Assembly: GCA_041665545.1 (NCBI GenBank)
Contig: JBAYIQ010000001.1
Span: 137,911 to 201,910 of the forward strand
Length of the DNA: 64,000 nt
From: Patescibacteria group bacterium
Lineage (GTDB): Bacteria > Patescibacteriota > Patescibacteriia > UBA1558 > GWA2-36-10
Reading direction: 5' to 3'
Of this stretch, positions 12,641-57,399 are shown piece after piece. Each line of letters starts with the position of its first letter. The stretch's first letter is position 1. The position numbers and the translations under genes are program-made. The notes beneath the pieces were generated by a model. That model was not told where the DNA came from. It did not search any database and worked only from the letters and a program-made list of their open reading frames with translations.

Positions 12641-12696
12641 AAAAATAAGTATTAGCTTAATAATAATACGACTTAATTATAAAATCTTTCGGCAAA

Positions 12697-12746
12697 AAAA
12701 ACAAGCCCCAACCTCTGCACGCGTTGTGCAAAAAAGGTTGGGGCCC
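12697..12746 (-). terminator. GC hairpin terminator of GC-rich cassette A
   Basis: gccccaacctctgcacgcgttgtgcaaaaaaggttggggc immediately after stop of 12763..14079. Confidence 0.5.
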
Positions 12747-12762
12747 GTACGAATCTTGGAAA

Positions 12763-14079
12763 CTAGGCGGCTTCCGCACCCTCGGCAATGTAGGGTGCGA
12801 TCGACCCGAGCTGTCTGTCCACCAGGACACGCAACTCGCTGCGACCAGCGAAATCGGTCTTAGCCACAGCATCGACGGCCAGTTTGACGGCCGAGCCGAT
12901 ATCGGGATTATTGAGAGCGGTGACCAGAGGCATCAGCTCAGCCAGACGAGCATCGCCCTTGCCCTCGGCAGTGATCACTGCGATCCTCTTGTCGAGGGCG
13001 GTCTTGACGACATCGATACGCTTGGCCGCCAGCTCGTTCAGTCGAGCCTGAACCTCTGGGCTGGGTGTCGGGTCCTCAATCAGAACACTCTTTACCTTAT
13101 AGCCCGAAACGCTTTCCAGCCGGGCAATGGCCTCATCCCAGTTCGCGTCTTCAAAGACGCCGCCGACTTGGATCTTCTCCAGAGTTTGACCCTTAAGGAG
13201 AACCCGAAAGTCAGCACCGAAGATTTCACTCGCATACTTGACCAAGCCGGCATCAGTCCGCACCTCGGGCGGAGCAGACCAATAGGCATTCAGATTCTCC
13301 GGCCCATCAAGAATGGGGATGAACTTAACATTTACATCTCCCCCGACCTCGATATCGGGTTCACCATCAAGACCTGGGATCTTGCCACCAAGAGTAGGTA
13401 TTTTCTCAGTGACACAAGAGAGTTGTAAACCACGTCTTTCCAGGACGACATTGAATTCGAGACCTGGGGCATTCCTAGGAATCTTCGTCCGGTGGAAACC
13501 GTTGTAGAAGACATACTTGTCGAACATCCACCAGGCGTGAAAGCAACGGCGTCCGAACAGTTTCGGCGTCCATAGTTCCTGCTCCGGAACCTGAATGTTC
13601 ATGATGGCCATCGTAGATCCCGTGGCCAACGACCAAAAAATCACGGTCACCATGTGACCAAATGTCAGGATACCCAAGGTCAGGCACACGCCAGTCACAA
13701 TTGTCGAATAGAATGCCCAGGTGTCTCGCTTGTTGCCAAGCCACGGCCGCGGTTTGTAGGTGTAGTAGGCCTGTAGCGCCGTAATAGCCGCAACGAGCAG
13801 TGCCAACACCACACGAAACCACGGGAAATTGTGGGAGACCTCCTTACCAGCTGTCTTTCCAACTGTCACAGCTGTCTTTACGTCCTCAACTACAGCCGAC
13901 GGCGCAAAAAACAGCCAGTGATGGTTCCAGGAAGCGGCCAGCACTCCCACAGCCAGCAAGGCCGTGGTAATGATCGCTCTCCACCCCACCTTCAGCTTTG
14001 TGCTGTTATTGACCAGCGCGGCAACAACGGACACGATGATCGCAATCACCGCATCAAGGACGAACTTGTTCTGAAACAT
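12763..14079 (-). CDS. SPFH/band-7 domain membrane protein (HflK/C-flotillin-like), GC-rich horizontally acquired gene
   Basis: multi-TM N-terminus; C-terminal KAVDAVAKT..RIAVITAEGKGDARLAE SPFH-like region; GC content far above flanks; own consensus promoter and AAAGGAGGGG SD. Confidence 0.6.
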   Translation of the reverse strand: MFQNKFVLDAVIAIIVSVVAALVNNSTKLKVGWRAIITTALLAVGVLAASWNHHWLFFAPSAVVEDVKTAVTVGKTAGKEVSHNFPWFRVVLALLVAAITALQAYYTYKPRPWLGNKRDTWAFYSTIVTGVCLTLGILTFGHMVTVIFWSLATGSTMAIMNIQVPEQELWTPKLFGRRCFHAWWMFDKYVFYNGFHRTKIPRNAPGLEFNVVLERRGLQLSCVTEKIPTLGGKIPGLDGEPDIEVGGDVNVKFIPILDGPENLNAYWSAPPEVRTDAGLVKYASEIFGADFRVLLKGQTLEKIQVGGVFEDANWDEAIARLESVSGYKVKSVLIEDPTPSPEVQARLNELAAKRIDVVKTALDKRIAVITAEGKGDARLAELMPLVTALNNPDIGSAVKLAVDAVAKTDFAGRSELRVLVDRQLGSIAPYIAEGAEAA

Positions 14080-14189
14080 GACCCCTCCTTTGGGGTAATA
14101 GGTTAACGATTGACTATCTATACATTTCCAAGACTTGTCAACGAACTTGCCAAAAACCTATGTTTTGTGACAATATATTATTATATCAC

Positions 14190-14218
14190 TTTTTTCTATT
14201 TTAGTCAAGAAATAGCTG
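14190..14218 (-). promoter_or_regulatory. consensus promoter TTGACT-17-TATAAT for GC-rich SPFH cassette
   Basis: minus-strand ttgactaaaatagaaaaaagtgatataat; region 14090-14390 also carries multiple TTGACA/TTGTCAA copies. Confidence 0.5.
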
Positions 14219-14388
14219 CTCCCCAATATTTGACACCAGGGCTTGTCAATTTAATACTAAAGTTTGATGTAACTACGTCTCGCACGCCAAAGCAAACTTT
14301 AATTAATAAATTAAATTTTTTTATAGGCCACTATCCCTCCTTAAGTGTCAAGCATTGGATTTTAACGCGACGGCGTGTCAATATTTTT

Positions 14389-15249
14389 CTACTTCTGACA
14401 AATTGGACAAAAATGTGTGCCTCTACCAGCTATTTTGTGTTTTTTTATTTCGGTTTTTTTACACTTTAGGCAGAGTTGTTTAGCGCGACCATAAACTTTC
14501 AAATATTTTACATAGGCCCCCCCGTTGCCATCTGCAGTCCGATAATCACTGAAAGTAGTGCCACCAAATTTTACTGCTTTGTTCATGATATAGTGACAAG
14601 CCTGGAAAATCTTTTTCTTATCTTGATCCCCAAGTGTGCTAACTCGCCTATCAGGCCTGACACTAGCCCGAAAACAAATTTCATCAGCATAGATATTGCC
14701 AATGCCGGAAAAAATCTGCTGATTCAATAAAACGCTTTTTAAGACACCACTTTTTTTATTTATGGCTGACAAAAAATTCGGTAACGTAAAATTTTTAGTC
14801 AATGGCTCGAGTCCATATTTTTTTCTAATTTCTTCTTTAGCCAAATGACTGACTATTTTGAAATAACCAAATTGCCGCAGATCATTGTAAAACAAAATAG
14901 ATTTATCAGAAAAATATAATATAATATGAGAATATTTATTGGGCAACTCTTGACTGATTGGCAAATTATGACCACCAGCCACAATATTTTTTTTATTTTT
15001 ATAGATCAATTGACCGGTCATTTTCAAATGCACCAGCAAATAATCATTACCTTTTTTTAATTTAAAAATTAAGAGCTTACCAACTCGATCTACCTTGGAA
15101 AAACTATTGCCTACTAATTTTTTTCTAAACTCAAAAATATCACCATGAATCTGTTTGATTTTGTGGATCTCTATTTTTACAATCTTTTTATTAACAATTT
15201 TGGCTTGCAAACCACGCCTAATTGTCTCAACTTCTGGTAGTTCTGGCAT
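14389..15249 (-). CDS. mutM: formamidopyrimidine-DNA glycosylase (Fpg/Nei family)
   Basis: N-terminal MPELPEVE, C-terminal zinc finger CLKC..CPIC. Confidence 0.85.
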   Translation of the reverse strand: MPELPEVETIRRGLQAKIVNKKIVKIEIHKIKQIHGDIFEFRKKLVGNSFSKVDRVGKLLIFKLKKGNDYLLVHLKMTGQLIYKNKKNIVAGGHNLPISQELPNKYSHIILYFSDKSILFYNDLRQFGYFKIVSHLAKEEIRKKYGLEPLTKNFTLPNFLSAINKKSGVLKSVLLNQQIFSGIGNIYADEICFRASVRPDRRVSTLGDQDKKKIFQACHYIMNKAVKFGGTTFSDYRTADGNGGAYVKYLKVYGRAKQLCLKCKKTEIKKHKIAGRGTHFCPICQK

Positions 15250-15295
15250 ATTTTTGTATTTTGCTCACCCCGTGAAATATAGCACATCAACCAAA

Positions 15296-15330: not shown

Positions 15331-15337
15331 CAATTTC

Positions 15338-17557
15338 TTAATATTGGTTTAGTACTGTATCTGTCACATTATAAATCTTATTTCCAGAATATTTTTTCAA
15401 TTCTTCCAAACTGACTATATGGACTTTTTTACCATTTATGATGACATATATTTTGCCATCATTGGCTTTTAACAAAGCGCCGTCGGAATAAAGCTTTATA
15501 CCATATATTTTACTAATTTTTCCTTGAGCGGCTTTATTATCAATTTTGGTTTCAACATATTGAGCTATTACTTCATCTGTCACATTGTATATTCTTTGAG
15601 CAAAATAGTTGTCATATAGATATTGCCAATTTGGTATATGATAAATCTGGTTACCAAGTACGTGATAAACTTCTGGTCCACAACCACGCACAAGAGATCC
15701 GGTAATAAATTCCATTACGCCTTTGATGTCACCATCGATATCTGGTTTACAGACGACTTCTTTGATACCCAAAACTTGTGGGGGTAATTGACCCAAGGTG
15801 TTTGGCGTAGTGAAGGTGCGATCAATGTCATAAGATGTACTGTTACCGCTATCTTTGGCTCTTATTTGATAATGATATGTGGTACTAGGCAACAAATCAG
15901 TTAGCGCCATAGTATGAGTAGCGTGATAATTGGTGCCTTGGTATTCGGAGCCATAAGAAGTGGAAGTACCATACAGCATCCAAGTCAGAGATTGACGAGT
16001 AGTTTCCCAAGTAATGTTGGCTGAATTAGTAGTTACGCTACTTTGAACATTAAATATATTGATGGGAATAAATCCGCCACCACCGCCACCACCACCGCCA
16101 GACGGTCCTGGCTGAGGATTAGGAGGCGTTATGGCAGTACACCTAGTACTACATACATCTGATCCATTGGGACCAGCGTCGCATTCTTCAGTACCAGTCA
16201 CTTCTCCATCACCACAAAATTGATCTACTGGAGCTGGGCACTGTAGCATTGGCGGTACAAAGTGGGCATAGCAAGCAACTTGATTATTTGGGATAACTAT
16301 TTGAGCGGCTAAGCTTACATCAGTCTGGTCAATAACTTCATCGTTATTTAAATCATAAAGAATATTATAATTACTATCGCCTGCTTGAGACCCGTCTGAA
16401 TCCTTTATACCCTGCCATAATCCCTGACACCAACCAATGTTGGTATAATTTTCGCAACTAAAGTGAAACTGGTCATTGGGATCTTCAAACTGCTGGTAAC
16501 ACTGGGCATCATCACCAGTGCCATGCATCAATGTCACAAAGGCCAAATCACTTAAATTAATAACTTCGTCGTTATTAATATCAGCTACATCATTATATAC
16601 TAAATGTGTTGAAGAGTTGGGATCAAAATAAGCTTTCAAAATGCCTAAAAGTGCACTGCACCAAGGAGCATAAGGTTTTGGCTCAGGTTCTTTTATTTTA
16701 CAAAGACGAACATCGTCAAGAAAAGTGCCATAACTATCACTTGGCCCAATGTCCTTAAAAGCTATTTCTGTATTTGTGCCATCAGCAGTAAATACGTAAT
16801 CAGAAGCGACCCAATTACTTTGAGCAAGTGGCGCAATACCAGTAGCCGGACCATTGGTAGCTACCTGATTACCATTAACTTCTACTGCTAGATTATTTTG
16901 CTCAGCAGCAATATCATGGCGGGCAGCAAATGACCAAAATAATTTATATTGTGCACCTACTTCTGTGACTATATTTTGTATTACACGTGTTGACTGGTCA
17001 CCATCAAGCTCAGAATATTGTAAGCCATCAGCTGCTATATTAGCACTCCATCCTCTGTGAAGCTCTAAAGTAGTAAGTGAATTATCAGAAACCTTTTCAA
17101 TTACCCAACCAGACACGGAGCTCATTATCTGCCACAAAGAACTATCTGTCACCATTGGCTCTTCAAAACTACCGTTTACAAAGAGATTGCTTTCTCCAGA
17201 ACATTCTTCTATCTCAATGAGTGTGCAGTTGGCCGTACAGGTAGCGGACCCACTTGGACCATCATCACATTGCTCACCTGGATCCAAAACTCCATTTCCA
17301 CACACTGGAGGAGGTACGGAACATTGTCCAGCTGTATCACCATGCTCTAAATGACCAGGAACGGCCTCTGGAGCCACCTTTATTTCCACCGCGCCTTCAC
17401 TAGTAGTGTGGCAAATGGAAACCAAAGTAATGTTTTCACTAATTAATTGATCACTAGTATCAATAGGCTGTTCAGCAAAGGCCGTTGCCCCACCTGACCA
17501 AACTATTACTGACAAGACGGCAAAACTAACAAAAATATTTTTTAATAATTTTTTCAT
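15338..17557 (-). CDS. secreted multi-domain surface protein (Cys-rich CxxGxxDxGExCDDG repeats, dockerin/EF-hand-like D-x-N-x-D-x-V repeats, Fn3-like domain, poly-Gly linker, C-terminal IYNVTD repeats)
   Basis: signal peptide MKKLLKNIFVSFAVLSVIVWSGGATAFA; CGNGVLDPGEQCDDG and CGDGEVTGTEECDAG; DINNDEVINLSDLA and DLNNDEVIDQTDVS; GGGGGGGG. Confidence 0.6.
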   Translation of the reverse strand: MKKLLKNIFVSFAVLSVIVWSGGATAFAEQPIDTSDQLISENITLVSICHTTSEGAVEIKVAPEAVPGHLEHGDTAGQCSVPPPVCGNGVLDPGEQCDDGPSGSATCTANCTLIEIEECSGESNLFVNGSFEEPMVTDSSLWQIMSSVSGWVIEKVSDNSLTTLELHRGWSANIAADGLQYSELDGDQSTRVIQNIVTEVGAQYKLFWSFAARHDIAAEQNNLAVEVNGNQVATNGPATGIAPLAQSNWVASDYVFTADGTNTEIAFKDIGPSDSYGTFLDDVRLCKIKEPEPKPYAPWCSALLGILKAYFDPNSSTHLVYNDVADINNDEVINLSDLAFVTLMHGTGDDAQCYQQFEDPNDQFHFSCENYTNIGWCQGLWQGIKDSDGSQAGDSNYNILYDLNNDEVIDQTDVSLAAQIVIPNNQVACYAHFVPPMLQCPAPVDQFCGDGEVTGTEECDAGPNGSDVCSTRCTAITPPNPQPGPSGGGGGGGGGFIPINIFNVQSSVTTNSANITWETTRQSLTWMLYGTSTSYGSEYQGTNYHATHTMALTDLLPSTTYHYQIRAKDSGNSTSYDIDRTFTTPNTLGQLPPQVLGIKEVVCKPDIDGDIKGVMEFITGSLVRGCGPEVYHVLGNQIYHIPNWQYLYDNYFAQRIYNVTDEVIAQYVETKIDNKAAQGKISKIYGIKLYSDGALLKANDGKIYVIINGKKVHIVSLEELKKYSGNKIYNVTDTVLNQY

Positions 17558-17726: not shown

Positions 17727-19379
17727 TTAAAATAAAATCAATAAAGCCAACAAGCCAATAAAACCCATGGTCGAGGCAATGGTTTTTAAGTGTTGTTTCC
17801 TGATCTCAATAAAAATATTTAACAACAAAGCAATAACTGCTACCAAAATCATAATTTTATAATACCAAGCGGAAATATCAAAAATTGGCCTTAAGCTATT
17901 CGAATCGGTGTTCTTGATAAATAAATATTGATTAAGCGCGCTTTGATTATCCAATAATATTTTTTGCCAAGCCAAGTCTTGAGTTGTTATGTTTCCTGCT
18001 AAATCTGAGACTACTATTGTCGCTGGAACAACTGGACTAAAAAATTGATCATCCACGTTTTGCACAACCCTATGACCTGTCCATAAGTTATTATTTTGAT
18101 CATCATTCTTTAGAGCAATATCAAAGCCATGGTATCTGACAAGGGCTGATTTTGTATCAGCACTCAACACTGCTTCTATTTTTACAATGGCCTGATTGTT
18201 TGTGGACTTGATGGCTGATATAAAGCTTTTCTCTTCATCTATAGTCGGCGCTTGATCGTCATACTCCACTAAATATCCCTGTGAAACACTTAATTGCTGA
18301 CCAAGAACAGCTTGAACTGTAATTTTATTCATACCCGGATCCAAAATCATCTGAACCGTAGCCTGTCCTTCAACCACTTTGCTTGTAGATTGCTTGTTAT
18401 CATTCACAAATAAAACTACTTGCTCTGCCTCTGGCGCCAAAATATTTATATCAATATTACCTTCTTTGGTAAGCAAATTATCAATAGCAGTGGTTATTTG
18501 GGGCTTGGCTAATGGCTCAATGTCCTTTGGGATCACAACGCTGACACTCTTTTCTGATAACACCGTTGGTTCTGTGGTAGTCGAAACCAATGTTTTCAAT
18601 GGTTCAACTGGTTTTACTTCTTGCATTGGTGATGTTTTTTGAAAACCAAACATCTGAGCTACTAGTTTGGTATCGAATTCCTGATACTGGCCAGCTATCA
18701 TGGCTACACCAATTTCATTGTAGTCGGGGTCTACTAAATTAGCATAATGTGTGGGGCTATTTTTCCAAGCTTCAATTACTTCAGCTGGCGCCGAGTAGCC
18801 AATAGCTAAATTCTCGCCAGCTACTTGATAATTATAGCCCTTTGAAGTAAGCCAATACCGTAAACCTTTTTTTTCAGGACTGACATGGGCAAAATATTGA
18901 TTGACCACCATATCCTCGGCTTTAGCAAAAGCGGCTGCTTGTAAAATTTCGCTCTCTCTAAGCGGTTGCAAGTCCAAAGATTGTCTTAAAGTGTTGGTCA
19001 AAGTCACAATTTCTTTACTCTCTGCTTTCAAAAAATCCGGCGTCAACCAAGCAGTCACCGGAAAAACAAAAACAAAACCAACTACCAAAATTTTTATTAA
19101 AACGGCGCTCAGAGAATAAAAAAATATGCGCCGAGTTTTTAAAATATGCGGTTTGAAATTATTATTTTTATTAGGGATAAAAAAATCTTTCATAAATAAA
19201 TAATTTATTGAATCCATATCTAATTTTGCTCTTTGGAAGTCGTTAAGTCCATCATGACTAGAGTCGGTACTCAAAGGATCAGAGTGGTAAACAAAAATTT
19301 CATCATAATCTGATAGGCCATCGCCATCACTATCGCGCCTCTTTAGGTCCTCGAAATCACCAATTTTTTTTCTAGGCAT
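17727..19379 (-). CDS. membrane protein with thrombospondin-type-3-like Ca-binding repeats and CAP/SCP/PR1-like domain
   Basis: DSDGDGLSDYDE repeats; TM; YFAHVSP..GENLAIGY..AWKNSPTHYANL CAP-domain signature; C-terminal TM. Confidence 0.6.
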   Translation of the reverse strand: MPRKKIGDFEDLKRRDSDGDGLSDYDEIFVYHSDPLSTDSSHDGLNDFQRAKLDMDSINYLFMKDFFIPNKNNNFKPHILKTRRIFFYSLSAVLIKILVVGFVFVFPVTAWLTPDFLKAESKEIVTLTNTLRQSLDLQPLRESEILQAAAFAKAEDMVVNQYFAHVSPEKKGLRYWLTSKGYNYQVAGENLAIGYSAPAEVIEAWKNSPTHYANLVDPDYNEIGVAMIAGQYQEFDTKLVAQMFGFQKTSPMQEVKPVEPLKTLVSTTTEPTVLSEKSVSVVIPKDIEPLAKPQITTAIDNLLTKEGNIDINILAPEAEQVVLFVNDNKQSTSKVVEGQATVQMILDPGMNKITVQAVLGQQLSVSQGYLVEYDDQAPTIDEEKSFISAIKSTNNQAIVKIEAVLSADTKSALVRYHGFDIALKNDDQNNNLWTGHRVVQNVDDQFFSPVVPATIVVSDLAGNITTQDLAWQKILLDNQSALNQYLFIKNTDSNSLRPIFDISAWYYKIMILVAVIALLLNIFIEIRKQHLKTIASTMGFIGLLALLILF

Positions 19380-19530
19380 ACTTATTTAATAAACATGATA
19401 GTTTAACACTTTTTAACAGATTAGTCAATATATTTTTATTATAGCATATTTAACTATTTAATTAAACAAAAAACCAGTTAAAAAACTGGAGAAAAATAAC
19501 CGACTAGAAATGCAAAAAATAACTTATTAT

Positions 19531-19663
19531 CTCGTGCCCTTCGACGCTGAATGTCCCTCGACTTCGCTCGGGACACTCGATTCTTCAGAGTCGAATGGTC
19601 GGAGGTGCTGATAAGCACCGTAGACCACGAGTGAGACTTTTGCGAAGCAAAAGGCGAATCGAG
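19531..19663 (-). repeat. tRNA-3'-adjacent structured element, copy 1 (immediately follows CCA of tRNA-Thr; followed by terminator)
   Basis: RNA sense CTCGATTCGCCTTTTGCTTCGCAAAAGTCTCACTCGTGGTCTACGGTGCTTATCAGCACC...GAATCGAGTGTCCC..GGGACA..CACGAG; three hairpins plus two crossing long-range helices. Confidence 0.7.
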
Positions 19664-19739: not shown

Positions 19740-19754
19740 ATATAAATTAAATAT

Positions 19755-19879
19755 CTCGTGCCCTTCGGCTCACTCCGTTCGCTCAGGGCATTCGACTCCT
19801 TCGAGTGGTCGAAGTCCGAGGCAAAGCCGAGGGCGCAGACCATGAGCGAAGTTCCGAGCCTGCGAGGAACGGAGTCGAA
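19755..19879 (-). repeat. tRNA-3'-adjacent structured element, divergent copy 2 (between tRNA-Tyr and tRNA-Thr)
   Basis: starts CCATTCGACTCC right after ACCA and pairs with downstream GGAGTCGAATGG; shares CCATTCGACTC, GAGCGAA and terminal CGAAGGGCACGAG with copy 1. Confidence 0.55.
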
Positions 19880-19965: not shown

Positions 19966-19979
19966 AAAATAATAAATAT

Positions 19980-25259: not shown

Positions 25260-25970
25260 TTATTTTTCTGATTTTACGACAATATTTATTTCGCCAAACA
25301 TATTATCTTGTTCAGCCATTATTTCTCTTTGCTTGATCAGCTCCAGCATAGCCAAAAAACTGACAATCGTTTCCATTTTATTATTACTATCCGTCACCAA
25401 ATGAGAAAACTTCACTTCTAGCTTATCCTTGATAAACTCTTTGAGATGTAAAATTTTCTCCCCAATAGAAATAGCTTTTTGCATTACTACTTTCGGAATG
25501 TTCACAAAACGCTCAATTCTTCCCAAAACATCCACAAAAATACTATTTAAAATATTTATATTTGTACTAAGCGGTGCAACAAATTCTTGCTTGACGGGTA
25601 ATTTCATGGCTTGCTGACGAGACCAAGAATGACGATGTTTGTTGTTATAAAGTTTATTTATGGCTTTACTAGCTTCAAAATACTGCCGATAAATCTTTAA
25701 CTGCTTTTCCAAAGAAGCGGTATCGTCATCTGTCTCCAAGGCCAAATCAGGCAATAGATATTTTGACTTAATATAAATAAGTCGAGAGGCAATCAACAAA
25801 AAATCAGCCACTTCTTCTGAAACTAGATTATCAGCTCCCTCTATAAGGGTCAGATATTGATCAGTAATTTTGGCTAAAGATATTTCCGTAATTTGCAACT
25901 TATTTTTTTCGATCAGTTGCAAAAGTAAGTCCAGTGGACCTTCAAATTGTTCCAAGGTAATTTTGTGCAT
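25260..25970 (-). CDS. scpA: segregation and condensation protein A (start revised to MHKITLEQFEGPLDLL)
   Basis: ScpA N-terminal motif LEQFEGPLDLLL; ORF-track N-terminal 80 aa derive from GC-rich noncoding element; AAGGA RBS before internal ATG. Confidence 0.75.
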   Translation of the reverse strand: MHKITLEQFEGPLDLLLQLIEKNKLQITEISLAKITDQYLTLIEGADNLVSEEVADFLLIASRLIYIKSKYLLPDLALETDDDTASLEKQLKIYRQYFEASKAINKLYNNKHRHSWSRQQAMKLPVKQEFVAPLSTNINILNSIFVDVLGRIERFVNIPKVVMQKAISIGEKILHLKEFIKDKLEVKFSHLVTDSNNKMETIVSFLAMLELIKQREIMAEQDNMFGEINIVVKSEK

Positions 25971-25989
25971 TTTTTCCTTAAATTCTGCC

Positions 25990-26340
25990 AATATTATATC
26001 ATTTATCAAGTTTTTTTCCAAATGAAAAGAGGGCCCTGTGCAACGTGGTGCGCGGCAACAGGACCCCCCGCGAGGCCGTTGACATGGAGTCTTCGGCCGC
26101 AAATTTTGTTTCGGGGAGCCTCCGCAAGCGACTGACAGAGGCTCCCCAGTAACAAGTGTCGGTGACACCTTGAACCAGTTGTGACGCGCAGGGTGTGTGC
26201 CCCGCGTCAAGCAGCATGGCTAAAGCGCCGCACTTGTAACTACCCCTCGGCAATCTTAGAACCCGCATACCATGCAACTGCGGGCGAGCGTTGGTTGCCG
26301 ATGGGCCTATTGCTTATATCACATTTATAGTTTTATGTCA
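25990..26340. ncRNA. GC-rich highly structured intergenic element (candidate ncRNA of unknown class)
   Basis: about 350 nt at roughly 60% GC in AT-rich genome; 10-bp stem GGGGAGCCTC/GAGGCTCCCC, GACGCG/CGCGTC, GGTGTC/GACACC hairpins; no ORF in correct context. Confidence 0.3.
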
Positions 26341-26342
26341 AT

Positions 26343-28094: not shown

Positions 28095-28170
28095 TGGAGC
28101 CACCCGTCGGAATTGAACCGACAACCTATGGTTTACGATACCATTGCTCTGCCAGTTGAGCTAGGGTGGC
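28095..28170 (-). tRNA. tRNA-Thr (anticodon CGT)
   Basis: GCCACCC acceptor, anticodon loop ATCGTAA, T-loop GGTTCAATTCC, CCA encoded. Confidence 0.85.
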
Positions 28171-28196
28171 AAATTTATAACTTTAATTATAAGGTT

Positions 28197-28270
28197 TATC
28201 GCCCAGAGGGCGACCCCGTCCCGCAACGCGAGATGGCGACACCACTGCTCTACCAATTGAGCCCGCCCGG
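28197..28270 (-). pseudogene. fossil 5' half of tRNA-Thr(CGT)-like gene fused to GC-rich hairpins
   Basis: GCCGGGCGGGCTCAATTGGTAGAGCAGTGGTGTCGCCA resembles 5' half of adjacent tRNA-Thr, then GC hairpins GCCCAGAGGGC etc. Confidence 0.5.
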
Positions 28271-28322
28271 CACGCCGATGGCGTAGCCATGGCGGAAGGG
28301 CTATCTCGGCCCAAGGCCGTCT

Positions 28323-29712: not shown

Positions 29713-29741
29713 TTGACAGGTTTTTAATTATATGCTATCAT
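29713..29741 (+). promoter_or_regulatory. promoter TTGACA-17-TATCAT upstream of candidate RNase P RNA
   Basis: ccttgacaggtttttaattatatgctatcat. Confidence 0.45.
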
Positions 29742-29761
29742 ATTTTATTGATCTTCGAAAT

Positions 29762-30110
29762 AACGAGTTGGGGGGTGTTGGGACGCTCGAGAAGTCCTGG
29801 GGACACCTGCTAGTTGTGGTCAGGGCCCGAACTGTTTGGGCTCGCTGTAATCCCGCAAAGGTTAGCGGGTGCAGTTTATCAGACCACGGATGGCAATCCT
29901 GATCCTTGTCTGTTGGGACAATGGGGATGGACCCGTCTTATCGTCGTCCCGAGGCCTCGGGCGACCAGCTGGCAGTGCCGATTTTTGAAAAACGTTCCCC
30001 ACAGACGGTGACGTGAAGCGCTCACGTTTCCTAGCGGGGATATCCTTGGCCAGGAGAGAATACAGGCCTCGGCTTACCTTCAGGACTTGTCCTGGCACCC
30101 CCCGTGTTCC
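29762..30110 (+). ncRNA. rnpB: candidate RNase P RNA (bacterial type A-like)
   Basis: P1 pairing GGGGGGTG (29769-29776) with CACCCCCC (30096-30103); CR-I-like GAGAAGTCCTGGGG; CR-IV-like ACAGGCCTCGGCTTA (30062-30076); GC-rich about 340 nt with own promoter and terminator. Confidence 0.55.
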
Positions 30111-30116
30111 TACCGA

Positions 30117-30165
30117 TGAGGAGTCTTTGTCTACACCATGGCAAGACTCCTTTTCTTTTTGTTTA
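30117..30165 (+). terminator. rho-independent terminator after RNase P RNA
   Basis: ggagtctttgtctacaccatggcaagactcc + ttttcttttt. Confidence 0.55.
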
Positions 30166-30220
30166 AAATAAAGAAATACCGCCGTCGAACCAGTGGGTTC
30201 GATGGCGGTACGAAATGTCC

Positions 30221-30412
30221 CTACACCTTCATGCAGGGAGCGTGAGGTGTGTCGCGATGCAAGCGCAGCTTCTCGGGAGTGATGTTGTTCCCGCACTCCG
30301 CCATACTGCACTTGACGCAATGCTCGCTCTTGAGGTGCCGAAGCCCCCTTTCCGAACGCGGAAGCGTTCTCCTGTTCGCATTGTTCCCCTTGGTGACCTG
30401 CTTCTTGCCCAT
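30221..30412 (-). CDS. small GC-rich Cys-containing protein (64 aa), moron-like cassette B
   Basis: start MGKKQVTKGNN preceded by AAGGAGGG SD; Cys cluster HCVKCSMAECGNN; promoter TTGACA-17-CATAAT at 30461-30489 (minus); 14-bp GC hairpin terminator 30178-30212. Confidence 0.45.
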   Translation of the reverse strand: MGKKQVTKGNNANRRTLPRSERGLRHLKSEHCVKCSMAECGNNITPEKLRLHRDTPHAPCMKV

Positions 30413-30547
30413 GGGTCCCTCCTTGAGATACATGATCACCAACGAAAGAGCAGTCTATATATTATGTATAGAAATTATTCTTTTGTCAAACAAACAACCC
30501 GCCCGCCACCGCATTGCGGGGCGAAACGGGTTGAAATTAAAAATAAT

Positions 30548-34946: not shown

Positions 34947-35014
34947 AATTAAATATTATTTTACCATATTTTGGCCTTAAAGAAAAATTTGACAAAAAGA
35001 AAACAGGGAGGACT

Positions 35015-35368
35015 TTGCCTGATGGCGCGATCCTCCCTGTGCGTGGTACAAGCGGCCATTCGGCCGCGCGGCGTTCGGGCTTGGCCAAACATCCAGACTG
35101 CACCTGTCCAGACCCACTTGTAGACAACGGCGAATTCCGCTGTAGACGAATGGTCGTTGACCTTAGGGCTCCTAGCCGCAATACCCGATATCGGTGGGCT
35201 CCGCTGGCTCGGTATCAGCCAGAACAACGACTATGGCGTTGTTATGAGAAATATGTGGAGGCCCAAGCGCTTGGTATTTGGCCAGCTGACCAGCCGAACC
35301 CGCCAAGGGAAGAGCCGAACAGCGGTCTAGCCGTGGCTTTGGGCCCCCTTGAAAAAAGAGCGTACTAA
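35015..35368 (+). CDS. GC-rich hypothetical ORF (cassette C); could alternatively be noncoding
   Basis: GGGAGGA SD before ATG; GC far above flanks; terminator ctgccaaaattagcag+T at 35421-35450. Confidence 0.3.
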   Translation: MPDGAILPVRGTSGHSAARRSGLAKHPDCTCPDPLVDNGEFRCRRMVVDLRAPSRNTRYRWAPLARYQPEQRLWRCYEKYVEAQALGIWPADQPNPPREEPNSGLAVALGPLEKRAY

Positions 35369-35457
35369 GGGGAAATAGTAGCATAATATCTAATTTGTGT
35401 CAATAACAACAAAAAACTGCCAAAATTAGCAGTTTTTTAGATGACAACCAATATTTA

Positions 35458-50735: not shown

Positions 50736-50836
50736 ACAAAAAAACGCCCTGCAATTTCTGTGGGGTGTTTTTTATTTTAAACAAAATTAAGAACGCGTCC
50801 CCGAAGAAACGCGTTCTGGAAAGAACAGGCCTACTT

Positions 50837-51253
50837 TCACTTGCTCACACTGGGAAAATGCGGGTCACGGTACTCGTCATTGTCGTCTTTGACAACGAAA
50901 GGAGAAACATCCTCCAAGCGCAACTCGGTGGTGCAGATGAAGGGTGACGACTCGACGACACGCGGTGGTTGAAACAGATTGGCCTCAGGAGTCAGCTTAG
51001 AGGCCAAAAAGTCCCGAATCCTCCTATGCCAGAGCAAGCCCAATGGCTTCTTGTTCTTCCTTTGCCAGACCAACTCCAAGCGCCAAGGCCTTTCCTCAGC
51101 CGTGATCGACACCTCCAAGCCACGATGGCTGATGTACTTCATAATCTCCGGCAACAGTAGCCCAAGCTGCTGACCCAGATGCCTCCTGACAGCCAAGGTG
51201 TTGACATGACGACCGTTAGCGAACTTAATGTCAGCTCTTTTCTTACCGACCAT
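50837..51253 (-). CDS. GC-rich hypothetical protein (cassette D), 138 aa
   Basis: AAGGAGGAA SD before ATG; promoter TTGACA-17-TATGTT at 51303-51331 (minus); GC-rich. Confidence 0.5.
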   Translation of the reverse strand: MVGKKRADIKFANGRHVNTLAVRRHLGQQLGLLLPEIMKYISHRGLEVSITAEERPWRLELVWQRKNKKPLGLLWHRRIRDFLASKLTPEANLFQPPRVVESSPFICTTELRLEDVSPFVVKDDNDEYRDPHFPSVSK

Positions 51254-51339
51254 GAGCTATTCCTCCTTGAAGGTTCAAGTGCCCCAAAAAATGGGAATAT
51301 GATAACATATAATATTTATCCCCTCTTGTCAATGGCAAA

Positions 51340-51372
51340 ACAAAAAAACAACCCAGTGGGTTGATTATTAAT
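51340..51372 (-). terminator. terminator of tRNA-Lys/structured-element transcript
   Basis: caacccactgggttg + T7 on minus strand. Confidence 0.55.
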
Positions 51373-51382
51373 AATGCATGCT

Positions 51383-51507
51383 CTCGTGTCCCTCGACTCA
51401 CTCCGTTCGCTCGGGACACTCGATTCGCAGGAATGAGAATGGTCGGAGGTGCGATAAAGCACCGTAGACCACGAGTGAGTCTTTTGCAAAGCAAAAGGCG
51501 AATCGAG
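51383..51507 (-). repeat. tRNA-3'-adjacent structured element, copy 3 (immediately follows CCA of tRNA-Lys)
   Basis: about 88% identical to copy 1 over first 70 nt; compensatory changes in hairpins (GGTGC-TTTATC-GCACC vs GGTGCT-TATC-AGCACC). Confidence 0.7.
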
Positions 51508-51666: not shown

Positions 51667-51695
51667 TTGACAAAAATAAATAAATATGATATAGT
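51667..51695 (+). promoter_or_regulatory. promoter TTGACA-17-TATAGT for DHH phosphoesterase cassette
   Basis: ttgacaaaaataaataaatatgatatagt. Confidence 0.5.
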
Positions 51696-51718
51696 AACGA
51701 ACTTGTTCTTTATAAACT

Positions 51719-51771
51719 CCTAATCAGAATTTTGTCCAGCAAATTGCCTGATAAAGCTCTGATTAGGAAAC
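51719..51771 (+). promoter_or_regulatory. 5'-UTR stem-loop (11-bp stem TCCTAATCAGA/TCTGATTAGGA with 29-nt loop)
   Basis: perfect inverted repeat between promoter and SD of DHH gene. Confidence 0.4.
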
Positions 51772-51800
51772 TATCACTTCTCTGAACTGGAGGACTTACC

Positions 51801-52700
51801 ATGGATTACCCGCGGAACTCGGTCTGCATCTATCACAGTGCGGACAATGACGGCGCTTGCAGTGCGGCCATCGCCAAGTTGGCGGCTCGTGTCAGACTGA
51901 TCCCCTGGAATTATGGACACCCCATACCCTGGGAGAGAATACCCGTCGGCGCTACGATCTTTGTGGTCGATCTGCTGCTCACCAGCCAGAACGACAACAG
52001 TGGTTTCCAGGACATGGAGCGCCTGCGCAAGATCGGTAAGCTCGTCTGGATTGACCATCACGACAAGGCCATCAACGACGCCAAAGTGTTGGGTTTGGCC
52101 TATGATGGCATCCAGCGAGTTGGTCAGGGCGCTTGCGCTTTGACCTGGGAATATTTCTTCCCCAACAAGCCCATGCCCGAAGCAGTCCGGCTGATCAGTA
52201 ACTTCGATGTCTTTGACCATAGGGAGGTAAAGACAGTCCATTTCCAGTACGGCTTGCGTGCTTGCAATGCCAAGCCCTGGATGGACATTTGGAAAGATCT
52301 TCTTAAGCCACCCTTCCAAAGCGATGCTCTGGTCAACCAGCTGGTCAGTGATGGTATCCCCATCACCAAGTACCTGACCTTGGAATTCGCCCGCTACATG
52401 CGAGTCTGTGGCTTCGAGACTATTCTCGACGGGCACCGTGCCATTGCGGTGAATCGTGCTCTGGTCAACAGCCAGATCTTCGAATCTGTACACAACCTCG
52501 AAGACTATCCGTTGCAGATGTACTTTTACTGGAGCTCTGACGGCTCATGGAAGGTGAGCATGCGTTCGCCCGACGGTCGCGTGAACTGTGCAGAACTCGC
52601 AGCCAAGTACGGTGGTGGCGGACACAGCCGAGCAGCCAGTTTCGTGTGCCAGGAACTGCGCTTTGAACTCAAAGGGCGACCTGACGCCGATCCTGACTGA
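51801..52700 (+). CDS. DHH/DHHA1 phosphoesterase (NrnA/DhhP-like nanoRNase or cyclic-dinucleotide phosphodiesterase), GC-rich cassette E
   Basis: motif I HSADNDGA, motif III WIDHHDKA, DHHA1 GGGGHSRAAS; GC-rich; TGGAGGA SD. Confidence 0.7.
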   Translation: MDYPRNSVCIYHSADNDGACSAAIAKLAARVRLIPWNYGHPIPWERIPVGATIFVVDLLLTSQNDNSGFQDMERLRKIGKLVWIDHHDKAINDAKVLGLAYDGIQRVGQGACALTWEYFFPNKPMPEAVRLISNFDVFDHREVKTVHFQYGLRACNAKPWMDIWKDLLKPPFQSDALVNQLVSDGIPITKYLTLEFARYMRVCGFETILDGHRAIAVNRALVNSQIFESVHNLEDYPLQMYFYWSSDGSWKVSMRSPDGRVNCAELAAKYGGGGHSRAASFVCQELRFELKGRPDADPD

Positions 52701-52711
52701 GTAACGAGAAG

Positions 52712-52745
52712 TTGATCCTGACCCCGGCTAGTGGCAACACTGGTC
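52712..52745 (+). terminator. GC hairpin terminator (GACCCCGG...CCGGGGTC)
   Basis: inverted repeat after DHH gene stop. Confidence 0.45.
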
Positions 52746-52855
52746 GGGGTCTTAAATTTGTTTATAATTTATAAATATTGGGTATAAATTGTATATAAAC
52801 CCGGCTTGAAAAAAGCCGGGAAATGGGTTAAGCTAATCCTACATTAAGCAAACCC

Positions 52856-54753: not shown

Positions 54754-54834
54754 TGCGCCCCGTTAAAAATTCACGAAAAAAACTATTTTTTATTTACGAA
54801 ATCTGCACTAGCTAAATACATAAATTTTTAACGA

Positions 54835-55426
54835 GGTGAAACATCTACCAGATTTTATCCAAAAATTAATCAATGAATTTGATAAACTGCCGGGCATTGG
54901 GCCAAAAACATCCACTCGGTTGGTTTTTGATTTACTGCATCGTCGCGAGGACATCCAGGAATTTGCCAAAAGTTTGAACGAGGCCTATGAAAAAGTTCAT
55001 TTCTGTCCCCAGTGCTTCAATCTGACAGATACGGGACTCTGCAATATCTGTCGTGATCCCCAGCGGGACCAAAGTATTATTTGCGTTATTGCTCACAACC
55101 AAGATATTGAAGCTATTGAAAGAACCAATGAATTCACTGGCACCTACCATTTGCTTAATGGACTCTTGGGACCACTAGAAGGCATCACGCCTGATAAACT
55201 AAAAATTAAAGAACTGCTCGAGAGAGTCAAAAAAAATAACATCAAAGAAATTATTCTGGCGCTTGACCAAAGTATGGAAGGCGGAGCCACCACTATGTAT
55301 CTTTTGAAAATTCTGGCTGACAAAAATGTTGTGGTCAGTCAGCTAGCCCGTGGCATACCCATGGGCGCCAATATAGAATACACGGACGAAGTCACACTGT
55401 CTTCGGCCTTAAAAAATAGAAAATAA
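54835..55426 (+). CDS. recR: recombination protein RecR (GTG start)
   Basis: HhH LPGIGPKTS, C4 zinc finger CPQC..CNIC, Toprim domain. Confidence 0.85.
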
Positions 55427-55428
55427 AA

Positions 55429-55452
55429 TACCCCGCAGCTAGCGGGGATTTT
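55429..55452. terminator. bidirectional terminator CCCCGCagctaGCGGGG
   Basis: between converging recR and rplU. Confidence 0.55.
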
Positions 55453-55453
55453 T

Positions 55454-55774
55454 TTATTTAGTAACAATCTTTTCGATGTTTACTTCTTCTTTGATTTGTC
55501 TGTGACCGTATCTTTTTCGATAACGAGTTTTGTTGTGGTATTTGAAAACATCAATTTTCTTCTCTTTGAATTCTTTGACCAAGGTAGCTTCAACTTTAGC
55601 ACCTTTGACCAAAGGAGCACCAACCGTAATATTTTCTTTATCATCGATTATAGCCAACACTTCTTCAAAAACAACAGTTTGACCTGCTGTAGTGCCTTTT
55701 ATTCTTTCGACGCTTAATTTTTGCCCAGTGGCAATCAAATATTGTTTACCACCAGTTCTGATTATTGCTTTCAT
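55454..55774 (-). CDS. rplU: 50S ribosomal protein L21
   Basis: MKAIIRTGGKQY...KYHNKTRYRKRYGHRQ L21 signature. Confidence 0.9.
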   Translation of the reverse strand: MKAIIRTGGKQYLIATGQKLSVERIKGTTAGQTVVFEEVLAIIDDKENITVGAPLVKGAKVEATLVKEFKEKKIDVFKYHNKTRYRKRYGHRQIKEEVNIEKIVTK

Positions 55775-55853
55775 AAAATCTATAGCTATTTTTAATACGG
55801 GTTAAATATTAACAAAGATTAGCAATTGTGTCAATAATACTGAATACACGCCA

Positions 55854-55882
55854 TTGACAAGATATGAAATGTGTGATATAAT
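55854..55882 (+). promoter_or_regulatory. perfect consensus promoter TTGACA-17-TATAAT (cassette F, gene 1)
   Basis: ttgacaagatatgaaatgtgtgatataat. Confidence 0.6.
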
Positions 55883-55958
55883 ATAAAATCGTGGTTAATT
55901 TCTACCACGTGCACCTTAGCAAGACACAAGGTAAATATGGCCAATGGAGGTCCTTGAA

Positions 55959-56693
55959 ATGGAAAAGACCGAAAAGACCGCCTTTGCTGTTCTGCACATG
56001 AGCCGTCACGAATCCAGCTCGCCCCAAGCCAACTATGGCCTGGGAACACTGGGTCCCATGGACTACCGCGGAATCCCGGTTCGCTACCACCCCAATTCCT
56101 TCATGCGTGACTCCGGTTACCGCATGCTGGAAATCCAGCTCCCGAAGAACCAGAACGAAGCGGGAGTCGCGATGGCTGTCATGCACGCAGGTCAGATTCG
56201 GGGAGCCATCAGTTCCCTGCAGGATCAGCTCAACAGTCTGACACCGGAAAAGATCTCCCACTACAACCTGATGATCAACGAACTGCTTCGCAAGGGCTAC
56301 CTGATGCACAGCCAAGTCCTCTACTTCAAACCCTGGCAATCCGGTCTCGTGGCCAAGTACGGCTGGGGCATCAATGGCTCTGGTGGCATGGTCATGTTCG
56401 GACAGAACAACTTCGGACAGAGCTTCGGAGTACAGGCCGGACACCAGCTGGTGCAGGTGGTCTTCCGACCCACTCCGTACGCCGACGGACTGATCTGTCG
56501 CTACGGCTGGGGCATCACCGTATGCCAGCCGGAAAGCATCAAACGTGTGCTGAGTGGTCTGCGCAAGCAGCTCGACAACGCCGTGTTCTTCCAGGAGCAC
56601 GGCTGTCTACTCGAAGACTTCGATCGGCCGAGTCTGGCATGCCGACTGATCGCCCGTCAGGCGACCCACGCGTGCCAGCAAACCACCGCATAG
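55959..56693 (+). CDS. GC-rich hypothetical protein with duplicated YGWGI motif (alt start 55944)
   Basis: GGAGG SD 7 nt before ATG at 55959; repeats AKYGWGINGSGG / CRYGWGITVCQ; GC-rich. Confidence 0.5.
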   Translation: MEKTEKTAFAVLHMSRHESSSPQANYGLGTLGPMDYRGIPVRYHPNSFMRDSGYRMLEIQLPKNQNEAGVAMAVMHAGQIRGAISSLQDQLNSLTPEKISHYNLMINELLRKGYLMHSQVLYFKPWQSGLVAKYGWGINGSGGMVMFGQNNFGQSFGVQAGHQLVQVVFRPTPYADGLICRYGWGITVCQPESIKRVLSGLRKQLDNAVFFQEHGCLLEDFDRPSLACRLIARQATHACQQTTA

Positions 56694-56772
56694 CGAGCAA
56701 CTGCTTGCTACGGTGACAACGACAGGACATTTTCTGACGCCAAGCGTCTGAAGGTGTCCTGTTTTCTTATAT

Positions 56773-56800
56773 TGACAATAGCTATATTATATGCTATAAT
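56773..56800 (+). promoter_or_regulatory. consensus promoter TTGACA-16-TATAAT (cassette F, gene 2)
   Basis: ttgacaatagctatattatatgctataat. Confidence 0.55.
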
Positions 56801-56858
56801 ATTAAATGTACCCCAGGATTCTAGTCTCGGGTTGTTCATTTCCAAGGAGGGATTTCTC

Positions 56859-57257
56859 ATGAGTCCGAAACAGCTTGCTGCCATCCCGTTCTGCATTTTG
56901 ACCGTAGTTGCCATGTTCTTATGGGTTGCCGGTCGTCCCACTGGCAAGCCCGACACAACGCGACTCTTCTCAATTGGGACTGATGCCCATCAGGTTCCGT
57001 GTGGTGACATCGGCTACGATGCCACCTTCCGCTACTATGCCGGAAACGACACGGCGGGCGTGACGGTAGCCAATCTCAATCCCGGGCTCGTAACGATCCA
57101 TCTCATGGATCGCCTGAGCAGGGATATCTACGGACGCAAACCCGTGCGGATCAACGGTGATCAGGCCAACCTGGAGATCATCAACAACGCCACCAATGAG
57201 GTGATTTGCCGCTGGCAGATCACCATCGATCGTCAGGTCGGTGTTGCCACCCGCTGA
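56859..57257 (+). CDS. GC-rich small secreted/membrane-anchored hypothetical protein (start revised to MSPKQLAAIPF)
   Basis: AAGGAGGGA SD precedes ATG at 56859; N-terminal hydrophobic segment; track ORF start 56754 lacks SD. Confidence 0.5.
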   Translation: MSPKQLAAIPFCILTVVAMFLWVAGRPTGKPDTTRLFSIGTDAHQVPCGDIGYDATFRYYAGNDTAGVTVANLNPGLVTIHLMDRLSRDIYGRKPVRINGDQANLEIINNATNEVICRWQITIDRQVGVATR

Positions 57258-57295
57258 GTACGCCCTCCTCCGGTCAGGCCACAAATGCCCGACCA

Positions 57296-57346
57296 AAACT
57301 CGTCGTCCATATCTTTTGGATCAAGCGACGAGTTTTCTTTTTACAA
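57296..57346 (+). terminator. long-stem terminator
   Basis: aaaactcgtcg...cgacgagtttt + ctttttac. Confidence 0.5.
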
Positions 57347-57399
57347 AAAAACCACTAAATAAATTAGTGGCTCTATAAACAAATTATTTCTAGATTTAG

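Follow-up and report, generated by a model that had tools for sequence, protein, structure and literature searches.

Phage morons, described by Hendrix and colleagues, are autonomous 'more DNA' units of lambdoid and other prophages. For bacterial pangenomes, Rodriguez-Valera and colleagues reportedly distinguished flexible genomic islands of a 'replacement' and an 'additive' type. Bacteria of the Candidate Phyla Radiation (CPR, or Patescibacteria) have tiny genomes and are mostly uncultured, and their accessory genes are poorly understood. Here, we describe a set of GC-rich single-gene units in a 64,000-nt stretch, subsequently designated the window, of a 295,640-bp metagenome contig (JGI 3300037810|Ga0376277_0000288), which NCBI annotates as a 'Patescibacteria group bacterium' metagenome-assembled genome. 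We consider it reasonably probable, albeit far from certain, that these units are single-gene accessory 'chromosomal morons' that came from outside, probably from a gene pool of phages or mobile elements, and that reside in an AT-rich chromosome that is essentially devoid of Shine-Dalgarno (SD) sequences. Horizontal gene transfer (mostly among Patescibacteria), genomic islands and prophages have been documented in Patescibacteria (PMC12455944).

Like phage morons, the six protein-coding units of the window (modules 1, 2, 4, 5, 6 and 7; Table 1) consist of a single gene with its own predicted promoter and intrinsic terminator, have a distinct composition and putative accessory functions, and, as seen for modules 5 and 6, lie between two genes that are direct neighbors in relatives and vary between close relatives. 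However, they are located outside any prophage, each by itself among housekeeping genes (dnaB, rplU, fpg, argS). Their GC content is not merely different from that of the host but higher, they are the sole SD-bearing genes in an SD-less genome, and several of their slots show allele replacement between conserved flanks. The latter is reminiscent of replacement-type islands, in which conserved flanks surround very divergent alleles (here modules 1, 4 and 7), while the addition of module 5, encoding a DHH-type protein, beside tRNA-Lys resembles additive-type islands. Unlike flexible islands, the units have the scale of one gene rather than of a multi-gene cluster, and the conserved 'flank' consists of expression signals, i.e. 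promoter, 5' untranslated region (5'UTR), SD and terminator. Integron cassettes are likewise single-ORF mobile units at recurrent sites, many of them encoding ORFans, but the window units lack attC, intI and a common Pc promoter, possess promoters and terminators of their own and are scattered instead of arrayed. We regard the units as flexible loci of the replacement type that resemble morons, reside in a cellular CPR chromosome and are set apart by an SD dichotomy. By and large, the observation of the first-pass annotation is confirmed, and its interpretation is supported in part. Among the open-access papers searched, none describes such a dichotomy in composition and SD, or GC-rich single-gene cassettes in CPR that alone bear SDs and have conserved sockets.

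All six intervals that the first-pass annotation had listed as GC-rich islands indeed exhibit sharp-edged GC peaks of 0.50-0.585 in 400-nt windows, as compared to ~0.33-0.42 in the background (~37% GC overall). Five of them contain the six protein-coding units, two of which share the interval 55850-57350. A uniform promoter/SD/terminator design had been proposed for all intervals; it holds for the six units, but not for the remaining interval 34990-35455. Each unit has a predicted sigma70-type promoter with 10-12 of 12 consensus matches and a 17-nt spacer, in several cases with an extended TG, followed by (A)AGGAGG or GGAGG 4-8 nt before the ATG (duplex ΔG -9.3 to -12.3 kcal/mol), and ends in a predicted GC hairpin with subsequent T-run. 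As far as can be predicted from the sequence, promoter and terminator thus enclose a single open reading frame (ORF). The composition is of the coding type, i.e. GC contents at the three codon positions rank GC3 > GC1 > GC2, with GC3 at 0.64-0.80 and GC2 at ~0.38-0.46, and is unlike that of the surrounding native genes (GC3 0.25-0.43). GC-richness begins at the coding sequence (CDS), the 5'UTRs being AT-rich. As GC1 and GC2 are raised along with GC3, the proteins appear to have evolved in a GC-richer regime and not to reflect codon selection alone. Translational selection as cause of the high GC3 was ruled out, because its usual targets, the ribosomal protein genes, are AT-rich and SD-less. 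In ~18 kb of extra sequence from the same contig outside the window (L099 and L100), three further GC-rich modules were detected, and both of those with a visible start are led by an SD. One spans the right end of the window (153 aa; GC3 0.61; SD GGAAGGAG; ΔG -9.8). The other two are located at L100 1-530 and 1780-2260; one comprises a 65% GC gene encoding a poly-proline tract (~16 consecutive prolines) and transmembrane (TM) segments, the other a 110-aa ORF with a AAGGGGGTGA SD. In total, ~9 GC-rich units were counted in ~82 kb, which is roughly a tenth of the genes.

The units and the native genes are separated by their SD sequences. Strong SDs, which would argue against an island-specific grammar if they were common on native genes, were found in all 6 island genes but in none of the 54 native genes (Fisher p = 2e-8). 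All native SD duplexes are weaker than -8 kcal/mol, mostly close to 0; the contrast remained unchanged when the best SD among the alternative starts of each native gene was considered (median ΔG -3.0). When both strands of the whole window were scanned blindly for GGAGG followed within 4-10 nt by a start codon and an ORF of at least 20 aa, 8 sites were obtained: the 6 island genes, one antisense site within a native gene and one site in a terminator stem. The additional ~18 kb of the contig contain 20 further native genes, including rplJ, rplL and rplI, all of which lack an SD. The proposed general weakness of native signals is therefore correct for the SD, but not for promoters and hairpin terminators: the tRNA-Lys promoter matches the consensus at 12/12 positions, 12 of 27 native unit heads have 10/12 or more matches, and GC-hairpin terminators are also present on native units. 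Island promoters are moderately stronger than native ones (Mann-Whitney p = 7e-4). Within the island families the SD is present in all homologs, even when the rest of the UTR has diverged, which argues that it is functional. A related situation is known from SD-blind Bacteroidia, whose genes lack SDs and in which rpsU is the lone strong-SD gene (PMC7797042, PMC13000453). There as here, native genes are SD-less and a small set has a canonical strong SD. The parallel is an analogy only; the SD-bearing genes of the window are GC-rich accessory ORFans rather than a ribosomal protein gene.

To follow the units in other genomes, relatives were collected through dnaB (L006 with 90% DnaB identity, L007 and L008 with 75-77%) and through homologs of the island genes (L086, L087, L088, L095, L096). 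L006, L095 and L096 have an empty site in place of the DHH unit, which reads ...ATTATTGACAAATAT directly joined to TGGGTATAAATTG... In the window, a block of 1.09 kb (~51678-52764) is cleanly inserted at this position inside a native promoter. As the insert begins right after the native TTGACA, the -35 box of the unit is native, while the remainder arrived with the gene. Judging from these junctions, the DHH unit is a recent insertion. A 14-nt direct repeat around the insert was considered as target-site duplication, but is already present in the empty sites. Module 6 was found solely in the window genome and in L095 (87% amino acid identity) and is missing in L096; it is bracketed by a duplication of the resident promoter comprising 35-37 nt. 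In both cases, relatives have the two flanking genes side by side, and the native -35 box of the one and the duplicated resident promoter of the other suggest that the promoter is at least partly host-derived. In L007, the slot between tRNA-Lys and dnaB is occupied by a module flanked by 68-nt direct repeats (84% identity), and in L007 as well as L008 the intergenic slots used in the window contain other modules that are GC-rich and led by an SD. Thus, the variable presence of modules 5 and 6 and the differing contents of the L007 and L008 slots agree with the earlier view of acquired autonomous modules or morons. That the units are uniformly recent is not borne out: module 1 sits in the same slot, between Fpg and DUF5663, in four genomes (window, L086, L087 and L088), with a GC3 of 0.54-0.64 in all of them versus 0.26-0.34 in its neighbors. 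In addition, L095 carries a 650-bp AT-rich insert (5928-6580; a DUF5698-like gene and a 43-aa ORF) between the module 4 region and the tRNA-Lys trailer, which is missing from the window and from L096. This AT-rich insert indicates that the neighborhood of tRNA-Lys is a general indel hotspot and not specific to GC-rich units.

In modules 1, 4 and 7, promoter, UTR, SD and terminator are retained around a hyper-divergent CDS. Between the window and L088, Fpg is 91% identical at the nucleotide level (synonymous divergence, dS, 0.36) and the promoter plus 5'UTR of module 1 are 89% identical, as compared to 61.5% nucleotide and 56% amino acid identity of the CDS, whose dS is 1.43. Between the window and L096, identities are 90% for rplU, 91% for the 3'UTR plus terminator of module 7 and 77% for the DNA of its promoter plus UTR, while its CDS shares 46% of nucleotides and 32% of amino acids. 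Module 4 homologs that share the core of the UTR, the SD and the terminator are present in L095 (70% amino acid identity), L096 and L006; in L006, where the protein is 35% identical versus 90% for DnaB, the ttgaaccttcaaggagga leader core and the acgcgt terminator are kept. A dS of the CDS far above that of the flanks points to allele replacement via recombination in the flanks, and not merely to fast protein evolution. As judged from the ratios of non-synonymous to synonymous divergence (dN/dS), the units are real genes under purifying selection with relaxed or diversifying constraint: values range from 0.19 (module 4) to 0.47 (module 6), as compared to 0.02-0.11 for native genes. The dS of module 6 is 0.16, that of the neighboring native genes 0.29-1.1.

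As to the source of the units, the closest relatives of the DHH protein are 41-44% identical, and the two whose contexts were read are encoded on phage-like contigs (L092 and L093) with a GC content of 43-51%. These contigs carry ERF/YqaJ or terminase/portal/Acb2-Tad1 genes, and most of their genes have strong SDs (median ΔG ~-9), making a phage-type source plausible for the DHH gene. The first-pass idea of a single donor or vehicle was not substantiated, because the other families are ORFans and no relatives were found in IMG/VR. Among the genes whose domains were read in the window and the adjoining 9 kb on either side, none for capsid, terminase or integrase occurs, placing the units outside any prophage; their neighbors are dnaB, recR, rplU, argS, fpg, murE, tRNAs and similar genes.

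Several observations weigh against a foreign, mobile origin of the units. Five of the six families are ORFans known from related Patescibacteria only, and a donor was identified for none of these; searches with the DHH family and those of modules 1, 4, 6 and 7 found no relatives in IMG/VR; and no integrase, transposase or prophage context is found among the annotated genes nearby. A working anti-SD is implied solely by the conservation of the SD. In the triplet of window, L095 and L096, third positions of module 4 changed 40 times from GC to AT and 15 times from AT to GC at native-like per-site rates, while six native genes are balanced (279:264), a spectrum that fits amelioration of foreign sequence and thereby speaks for such an origin, but that comes from one 135-codon gene analyzed by parsimony at a dS of ~1 and is biased toward common-to-rare changes. 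Finally, module 1 is GC-rich in four genomes although its synonymous sites are saturated. Its persistence requires either that alleles are re-imported time and again from a GC-rich reservoir with the same socket, or that some force maintains GC.

Such a force could be selection, if the units were a native class with special expression, i.e. clade-specific genes whose GC-rich codons and SD are kept as part of a separate translational regulon. We regard this as unlikely, though worth serious consideration. It would account for the synteny and GC-richness of module 1 in the face of saturated synonymous sites, for the conservation of SD and 5'UTR in all homologs, for the confinement of the families to the clade, and for the low dS of module 6 relative to its neighbors, as would be seen with constrained synonymous sites. 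Sequestration of the anti-SD in Flavobacterium and autoregulation of rpsU through its SD provide a precedent (PMC7797042, PMC13000453). However, selection at the codon level does not predict raised GC1 and GC2, module 4 shows net decay from GC to AT at native-like per-site rates, ribosomal protein genes are AT-rich and SD-less, the dS of the module 1 CDS by far exceeds that of its flanks, and modules 5 and 6 are variably present between genomes that are 85-94% identical. The composition could alternatively have arisen in situ through a local mutational or repair bias, such as GC-biased gene conversion at hotspots or targeted hypermutation, which would dispense with a foreign origin. The slots are evidently recombination-active, and CDSs far more diverged than their own non-coding flanks, with the dS of module 1 well above that of the neighboring gene, are what such a process may produce. 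We nonetheless deem it improbable: the net flux in module 4 is toward AT at native-like per-site rates, GC-richness starts at the CDS and not at the transcription start, leaving AT-rich 5'UTRs, external homologs of the DHH protein at 40-44% identity argue that this gene was not built locally, and neither a template repeat as in diversity-generating retroelements nor a reverse transcriptase was present among the ORFs and domains read.

Movement of the units by a dedicated recombinase acting on a shared site, as in the integron-like cassettes considered in the first-pass annotation, appears very improbable. Although single-gene variable units in recurrent slots, with direct repeats at the L007 module and at module 6, invite this idea, a comparison of all module ends with one another revealed no shared, attC-like sequence (blastn-short, E<0.05), and the 3' hairpins are unrelated terminators and not attC sites. 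The flanking repeats are copies of local sequence (promoter or terminator-proximal segment) and differ from slot to slot, each unit has a promoter of its own, unlike integron cassettes, and no integrase-type domain was found among the annotated neighbors. An assembly or binning artefact, by which GC-rich reads became chimerically joined into an AT-rich contig, would have to be suspected from the metagenomic nature of the data and from the sharp composition steps at the unit borders. Its probability is nevertheless negligible, because identical junctions are present in independent assemblies (JGI/NCBI; Logan SRR6484324 and SRR18595301) and further genomes from ENA, NCBI and Logan carry homologous modules between identical neighbors; moreover, the AT-rich promoter and UTR pass directly into the GC-rich CDS, with the SD at correct spacing.

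We therefore favor the interpretation of the units as foreign chromosomal morons, and propose the following scenario. A host-type sigma70 promoter, which in part stems from the resident promoter of the insertion site by capture or duplication, would drive each unit and be followed by a short AT-rich leader. The AAGGAGG-type SD probably travels with the foreign gene and may be retained because it is needed for initiation on a GC-rich, structured mRNA, while the intrinsic terminator downstream of the GC-rich CDS would insulate the neighboring housekeeping genes. Insertion would take place into intergenic promoter/terminator junctions, such as those between tRNA-Lys and dnaB, downstream of the rplU promoter and between fpg and the DUF5663 gene, and close relatives would differ by gain and loss of cassettes. 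In an established slot, the socket of promoter, UTR, SD and terminator would be conserved, with the CDS being replaced by, or diverging into, other alleles; allele exchange would most likely proceed by homologous recombination in the flanks. Resident cassettes would then drift toward the AT-rich composition of the host. Transcription, translation, the foreign reservoir, the mechanism of recombination and the biological roles are all inferred from sequence here. More tentatively, the clade may keep a sizeable pool of 'plug-in' cassettes, whose sockets would serve as homology arms for allele swaps with a GC-richer reservoir (phage or plasmid) and which, as the sole SD-dependent mRNAs amid otherwise SD-independent translation, would form a separately controllable translational class; we rate this as a possibility that is rather doubtful.

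The island proteins were searched against Pfam, PHROGs, NCBIfam and PADLOC. Only the DHH protein was matched, and no defence-system match was obtained. Module 5 encodes a DHH/DHHA1 phosphoesterase: PHROG 4771 is matched with E = 5e-37 over residues 5-286, the Pfam domains DHHA1 and DHH score 26.6 bits (cut-off 25.9) and 23.4 bits (below the cut-off of 28.1), respectively, and the translation contains the motifs ...WIDHHDK... and ...YGGGGHSRAASF..., the latter representing the GGGGH motif. It shares the DHH and GGGGH motifs with the phage-type phosphoesterases of PHROG 4771, but is at most 44% identical to any known protein. Module 1, whose family comprises 7 proteins, encodes a protein with ~6 N-terminal TM helices, the C-terminal half of which is predicted to adopt an SPFH/stomatin-like fold. 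This fold was detected by structure comparison alone, Pfam and NCBIfam giving no match. In Foldseek, the top pdb match was 9oh9_A (E = 6.6e-5, probability 1.0), and the top matches consisted exclusively of stomatin, QmcA, flotillin, HflK/C and prohibitin structures (probability ~1.0), with E values between 6.6e-5 and 1e-2, the model having a mean pLDDT of 58 and of 65-88 over residues 220-350. Unlike in SPFH/stomatin proteins, the modeled fold is fused to an unusual N-terminus with ~6 TM helices, and, like the DHH protein, it has diverged strongly from its known counterparts. Modules 2, 4, 6 and 7 encode ORFans. The module 2 protein is basic and Cys/His-rich (63 aa), without family match and with an empty exact-match look-up. 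The module 6 protein has a repeated YGWGI motif and was encountered as 2 proteins in 5.8e9; its AlphaFold model is unusable (pLDDT 33). The module 7 protein has an N-terminal hydrophobic segment, compatible with a small secreted or anchored protein, and its family amounts to 4 clusters among 1.84e9 representatives. Altogether, the island families other than DHH have 2-7 members, solely in contexts of related Patescibacteria. The roles read from the sequences (membrane SPFH protein, DHH phosphoesterase, small secreted protein) would fit envelope, phage-interaction or host-interaction functions. Mini-ORFs of 31-47 aa were also noticed inside GC-rich modules of relatives: L096 (10400-10560) encodes a 47-aa TM peptide after the module 7 homolog, and L008 (300-1050) has ORFs of 44 aa and 31 aa whose codons almost all end in G or C. 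These mini-ORFs may represent small proteins of the same cassette pool.

The untranslated regions of the modules display a few further peculiarities. In the predicted module 1 mRNA, 9 nt of the 5'UTR (near 14125-14133), TCTTGGAAA, are complementary to TTTCCAAGA following the stop codon (near 12752-12760). The 5'UTR element is positioned ~54 nt before the start. The complementarity (shuffle p = 0.01) is kept in L087 and L088 and may indicate that the two ends of the mRNA pair or that the SD is occluded. As a shared feature of the modules, such an inverted repeat was dismissed: it is significant for module 1 only, p being ~0.1 for modules 5-7 (7 nt), and was not found in modules 2 and 4. An anti-SD-like CCCTCCT directly follows the stop codon of module 7 and that of the L007 module.

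Table 1. Units, candidate RNAs and tRNA trailers predicted in the window. Positions refer to the first letter of the window as 1; promoters are given as -35 box, spacer length in nt and -10 box.
Feature	Position	Strand	Signals and properties
Module 1	12694..14208	-	promoter TTGACT-17-TATAAT 14208-14180; 5'UTR ~94 nt
Module 1 CDS	14079-12763	-	438 aa; SD AAAGGAGGGG within 14080-14091; terminator 12746-12694; GC3 0.64
Module 2	30165..30489	-	promoter TTGACA-17-CATAAT 30489-30461; SD CAAGGAGGG 30413-30425
Module 2 CDS	30412-30221	-	63 aa; terminator 30210-30165; GC3 0.79-0.80
Module 4	50779..51332	-	promoter TTGACA-17-TATGTT 51332-51304; SD CAAGGAGGA 51257-51269
Module 4 CDS	51253-50837	-	138 aa; terminator 50817-50779; GC3 0.67
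Module 5 (DHH unit)	51667..52763	+	promoter TTGACA-17-TATAGT 51667-51695, -35 native
Module 5 leader		+	AT-rich 5'UTR ~99 nt; SD CTGGAGG 51787-51800
Module 5 CDS	51801-52700	+	299 aa; terminator 52720-52763; inserted block ~51678-52764
Module 6	55854..56768	+	promoter TTGACA-17-TATAAT (12/12) 55854-55882; SD AATGGAGGT 55943-55953
Module 6 CDS	55959-56693	+	244 aa; terminator 56721-56768; GC3 0.74
Module 7	56772..57342	+	promoter TTGACA-17-TATAAT (12/12) 56772-56800; SD CAAGGAGGG 56843-56855
Module 7 CDS	56859-57257	+	132 aa; terminator 57299-57342; GC3 0.68
Extra module, 3' end in window	63959..64000	-	whole CDS L099 8803-9264, 153 aa
Candidate structured non-coding RNA	34994..35403	-	promoter TTGACA-17-TACTAT 35403-35375; RNA ~370 nt; terminator 35039-34994
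Candidate structured non-coding RNA	29713..30160	+	promoter TTGACA-17-TATCAT 29713-29741; RNA ~400 nt; terminator 30120-30160; adjoins module 2
Candidate structured non-coding RNA	26020..26341	-	promoter TTGACA-17-TATAAG 26341-26313; RNA ~285 nt; hairpin and T-run near 26020-26040
tRNA trailers	51370-51507, 19530-19663, 19754-19879, 58095-58224	-	after tRNA-Lys, tRNA-Thr(ggt), tRNA-Tyr, tRNA-Val

The remaining GC peaks of the window correspond to tRNAs with repeated trailers or to candidate non-coding RNAs. The interval 34990-35455, taken as a further protein cassette before, does not qualify as such: the plus-strand TTGACA at 34990 is without usable -10 box, the GGGAGG motif is an arm of a terminator stem, and the 117-aa ORF on this strand has a non-coding composition (GC1 0.67, GC2 0.55, GC3 0.53). 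Folding yielded a z-score of the minimum free energy (MFE) of -3.6 for the minus strand of 34994..35403 versus -2.3 for the plus strand, and the interval probably represents a structured non-coding RNA gene on the minus strand. Two additional candidates fold stably as well, i.e. 29748-30160 on the plus strand (MFE -180.7 kcal/mol, z = -5.5) and 26020-26308 on the minus strand (MFE z = -5.2), the latter belonging to the candidate at 26020..26341 upstream of the probable scpA start. The GC-richness of all three is explained by the fact that structured RNAs in AT-rich genomes are typically GC-rich. None of the three was matched in Rfam at the gathering score, nor was anything above noise obtained at E<=10 on the isolated regions; across the whole window only tRNAs were matched at the gathering score, and ARAGORN found no tmRNA. 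For 29748-30160, the motifs GAGAAGUCC...ACAGGCCUCGGCUUACC resemble CR-I and CR-V of RNase P by eye only, and this identity is not claimed in view of the missing Rfam match. The candidates at 29713-30160 and 26020-26341 may be housekeeping RNAs that have diverged very far, or else novel RNAs of CPR, and the three unclassified RNAs constitute separate leads. A metagenome scan with the neighboring [FeFe]-hydrogenase, aimed at loci syntenic to the RNA candidates, yielded distant or tiny loci only. The mechanically called 316-aa ScpA ORF (25260-26210, minus strand) begins at a TTG inside the GC-rich RNA candidate; its real start is probably the ATG at 25969, which has a TTGGAA-17-TATAAT promoter of its own upstream.

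Several tRNAs are followed by a shared, moderately GC-rich trailer of 45-130 nt with the pattern CTCGATTCGCCTTTTGCTTYGCAAAAG.CTCACTCGTGGTCTACG...GAGTGTCCCGAGCGAA..GAGGGACA. The trailers of tRNA-Lys and tRNA-Thr are 94% identical over 72 nt, and both share 98% with that of tRNA-Val over 45 nt. The element is conserved in L006, L007, L095 and L096 and recurs at L100 ~770-880. It may serve in processing or recombination or act as an RNA, and adds to the GC peaks near tRNAs. A GC-rich segment of ~150 nt (28175-28320, minus strand) upstream of tRNA-Thr(cgt) (28095-28170) contains the tRNA-like D-arm GGGCTCAATTGGTAGAGCAG. ARAGORN called no tRNA there, and the segment may represent a tRNA gene that is degenerate or interrupted, or else an element derived from a tRNA.

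Housekeeping genes of the window include dnaB, recR, ybaB, rplU, rpmA, lexA, argS, murE, fpg and mraZ/rsmH; further native genes encode asnS/lysS-type synthetases, a penicillin-binding protein (PBP), P-type ATPases and six tRNAs. The AT-rich native neighbors of module 1 are fast-evolving too (8470-12162, 12166-12640, 15338-17557 and 17727-19379, all on the minus strand). They encode a 1230-aa protein without domains, the DUF5663 protein, a Pur_ac_phosph_N/dockerin-like protein and a CAP/TSP3 protein. In a genome pair with 79% identity of Fpg, the 1230-aa and DUF5663 proteins are only 22-39% identical and the CAP protein 69.5%, which resembles a hypervariable surface-protein neighborhood.

Taken together, the combination of a GC-rich CDS, a canonical SD in an SD-less genome and an own promoter and terminator is a simple signature, readable from sequence, by which foreign cassettes of this window can be told from its native genes with hardly an error. 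It could assist in mapping the flexible gene pool of such lineages, including candidates for envelope, phage-interaction and host-interaction functions, and could help to find the unknown mobile elements or phages feeding these genomes. The conserved promoter/SD/terminator sockets may be regarded as natural expression parts for future CPR genetic tools. Moreover, the signature could aid the study of how foreign genes are expressed in hosts with a different mode of translation initiation.

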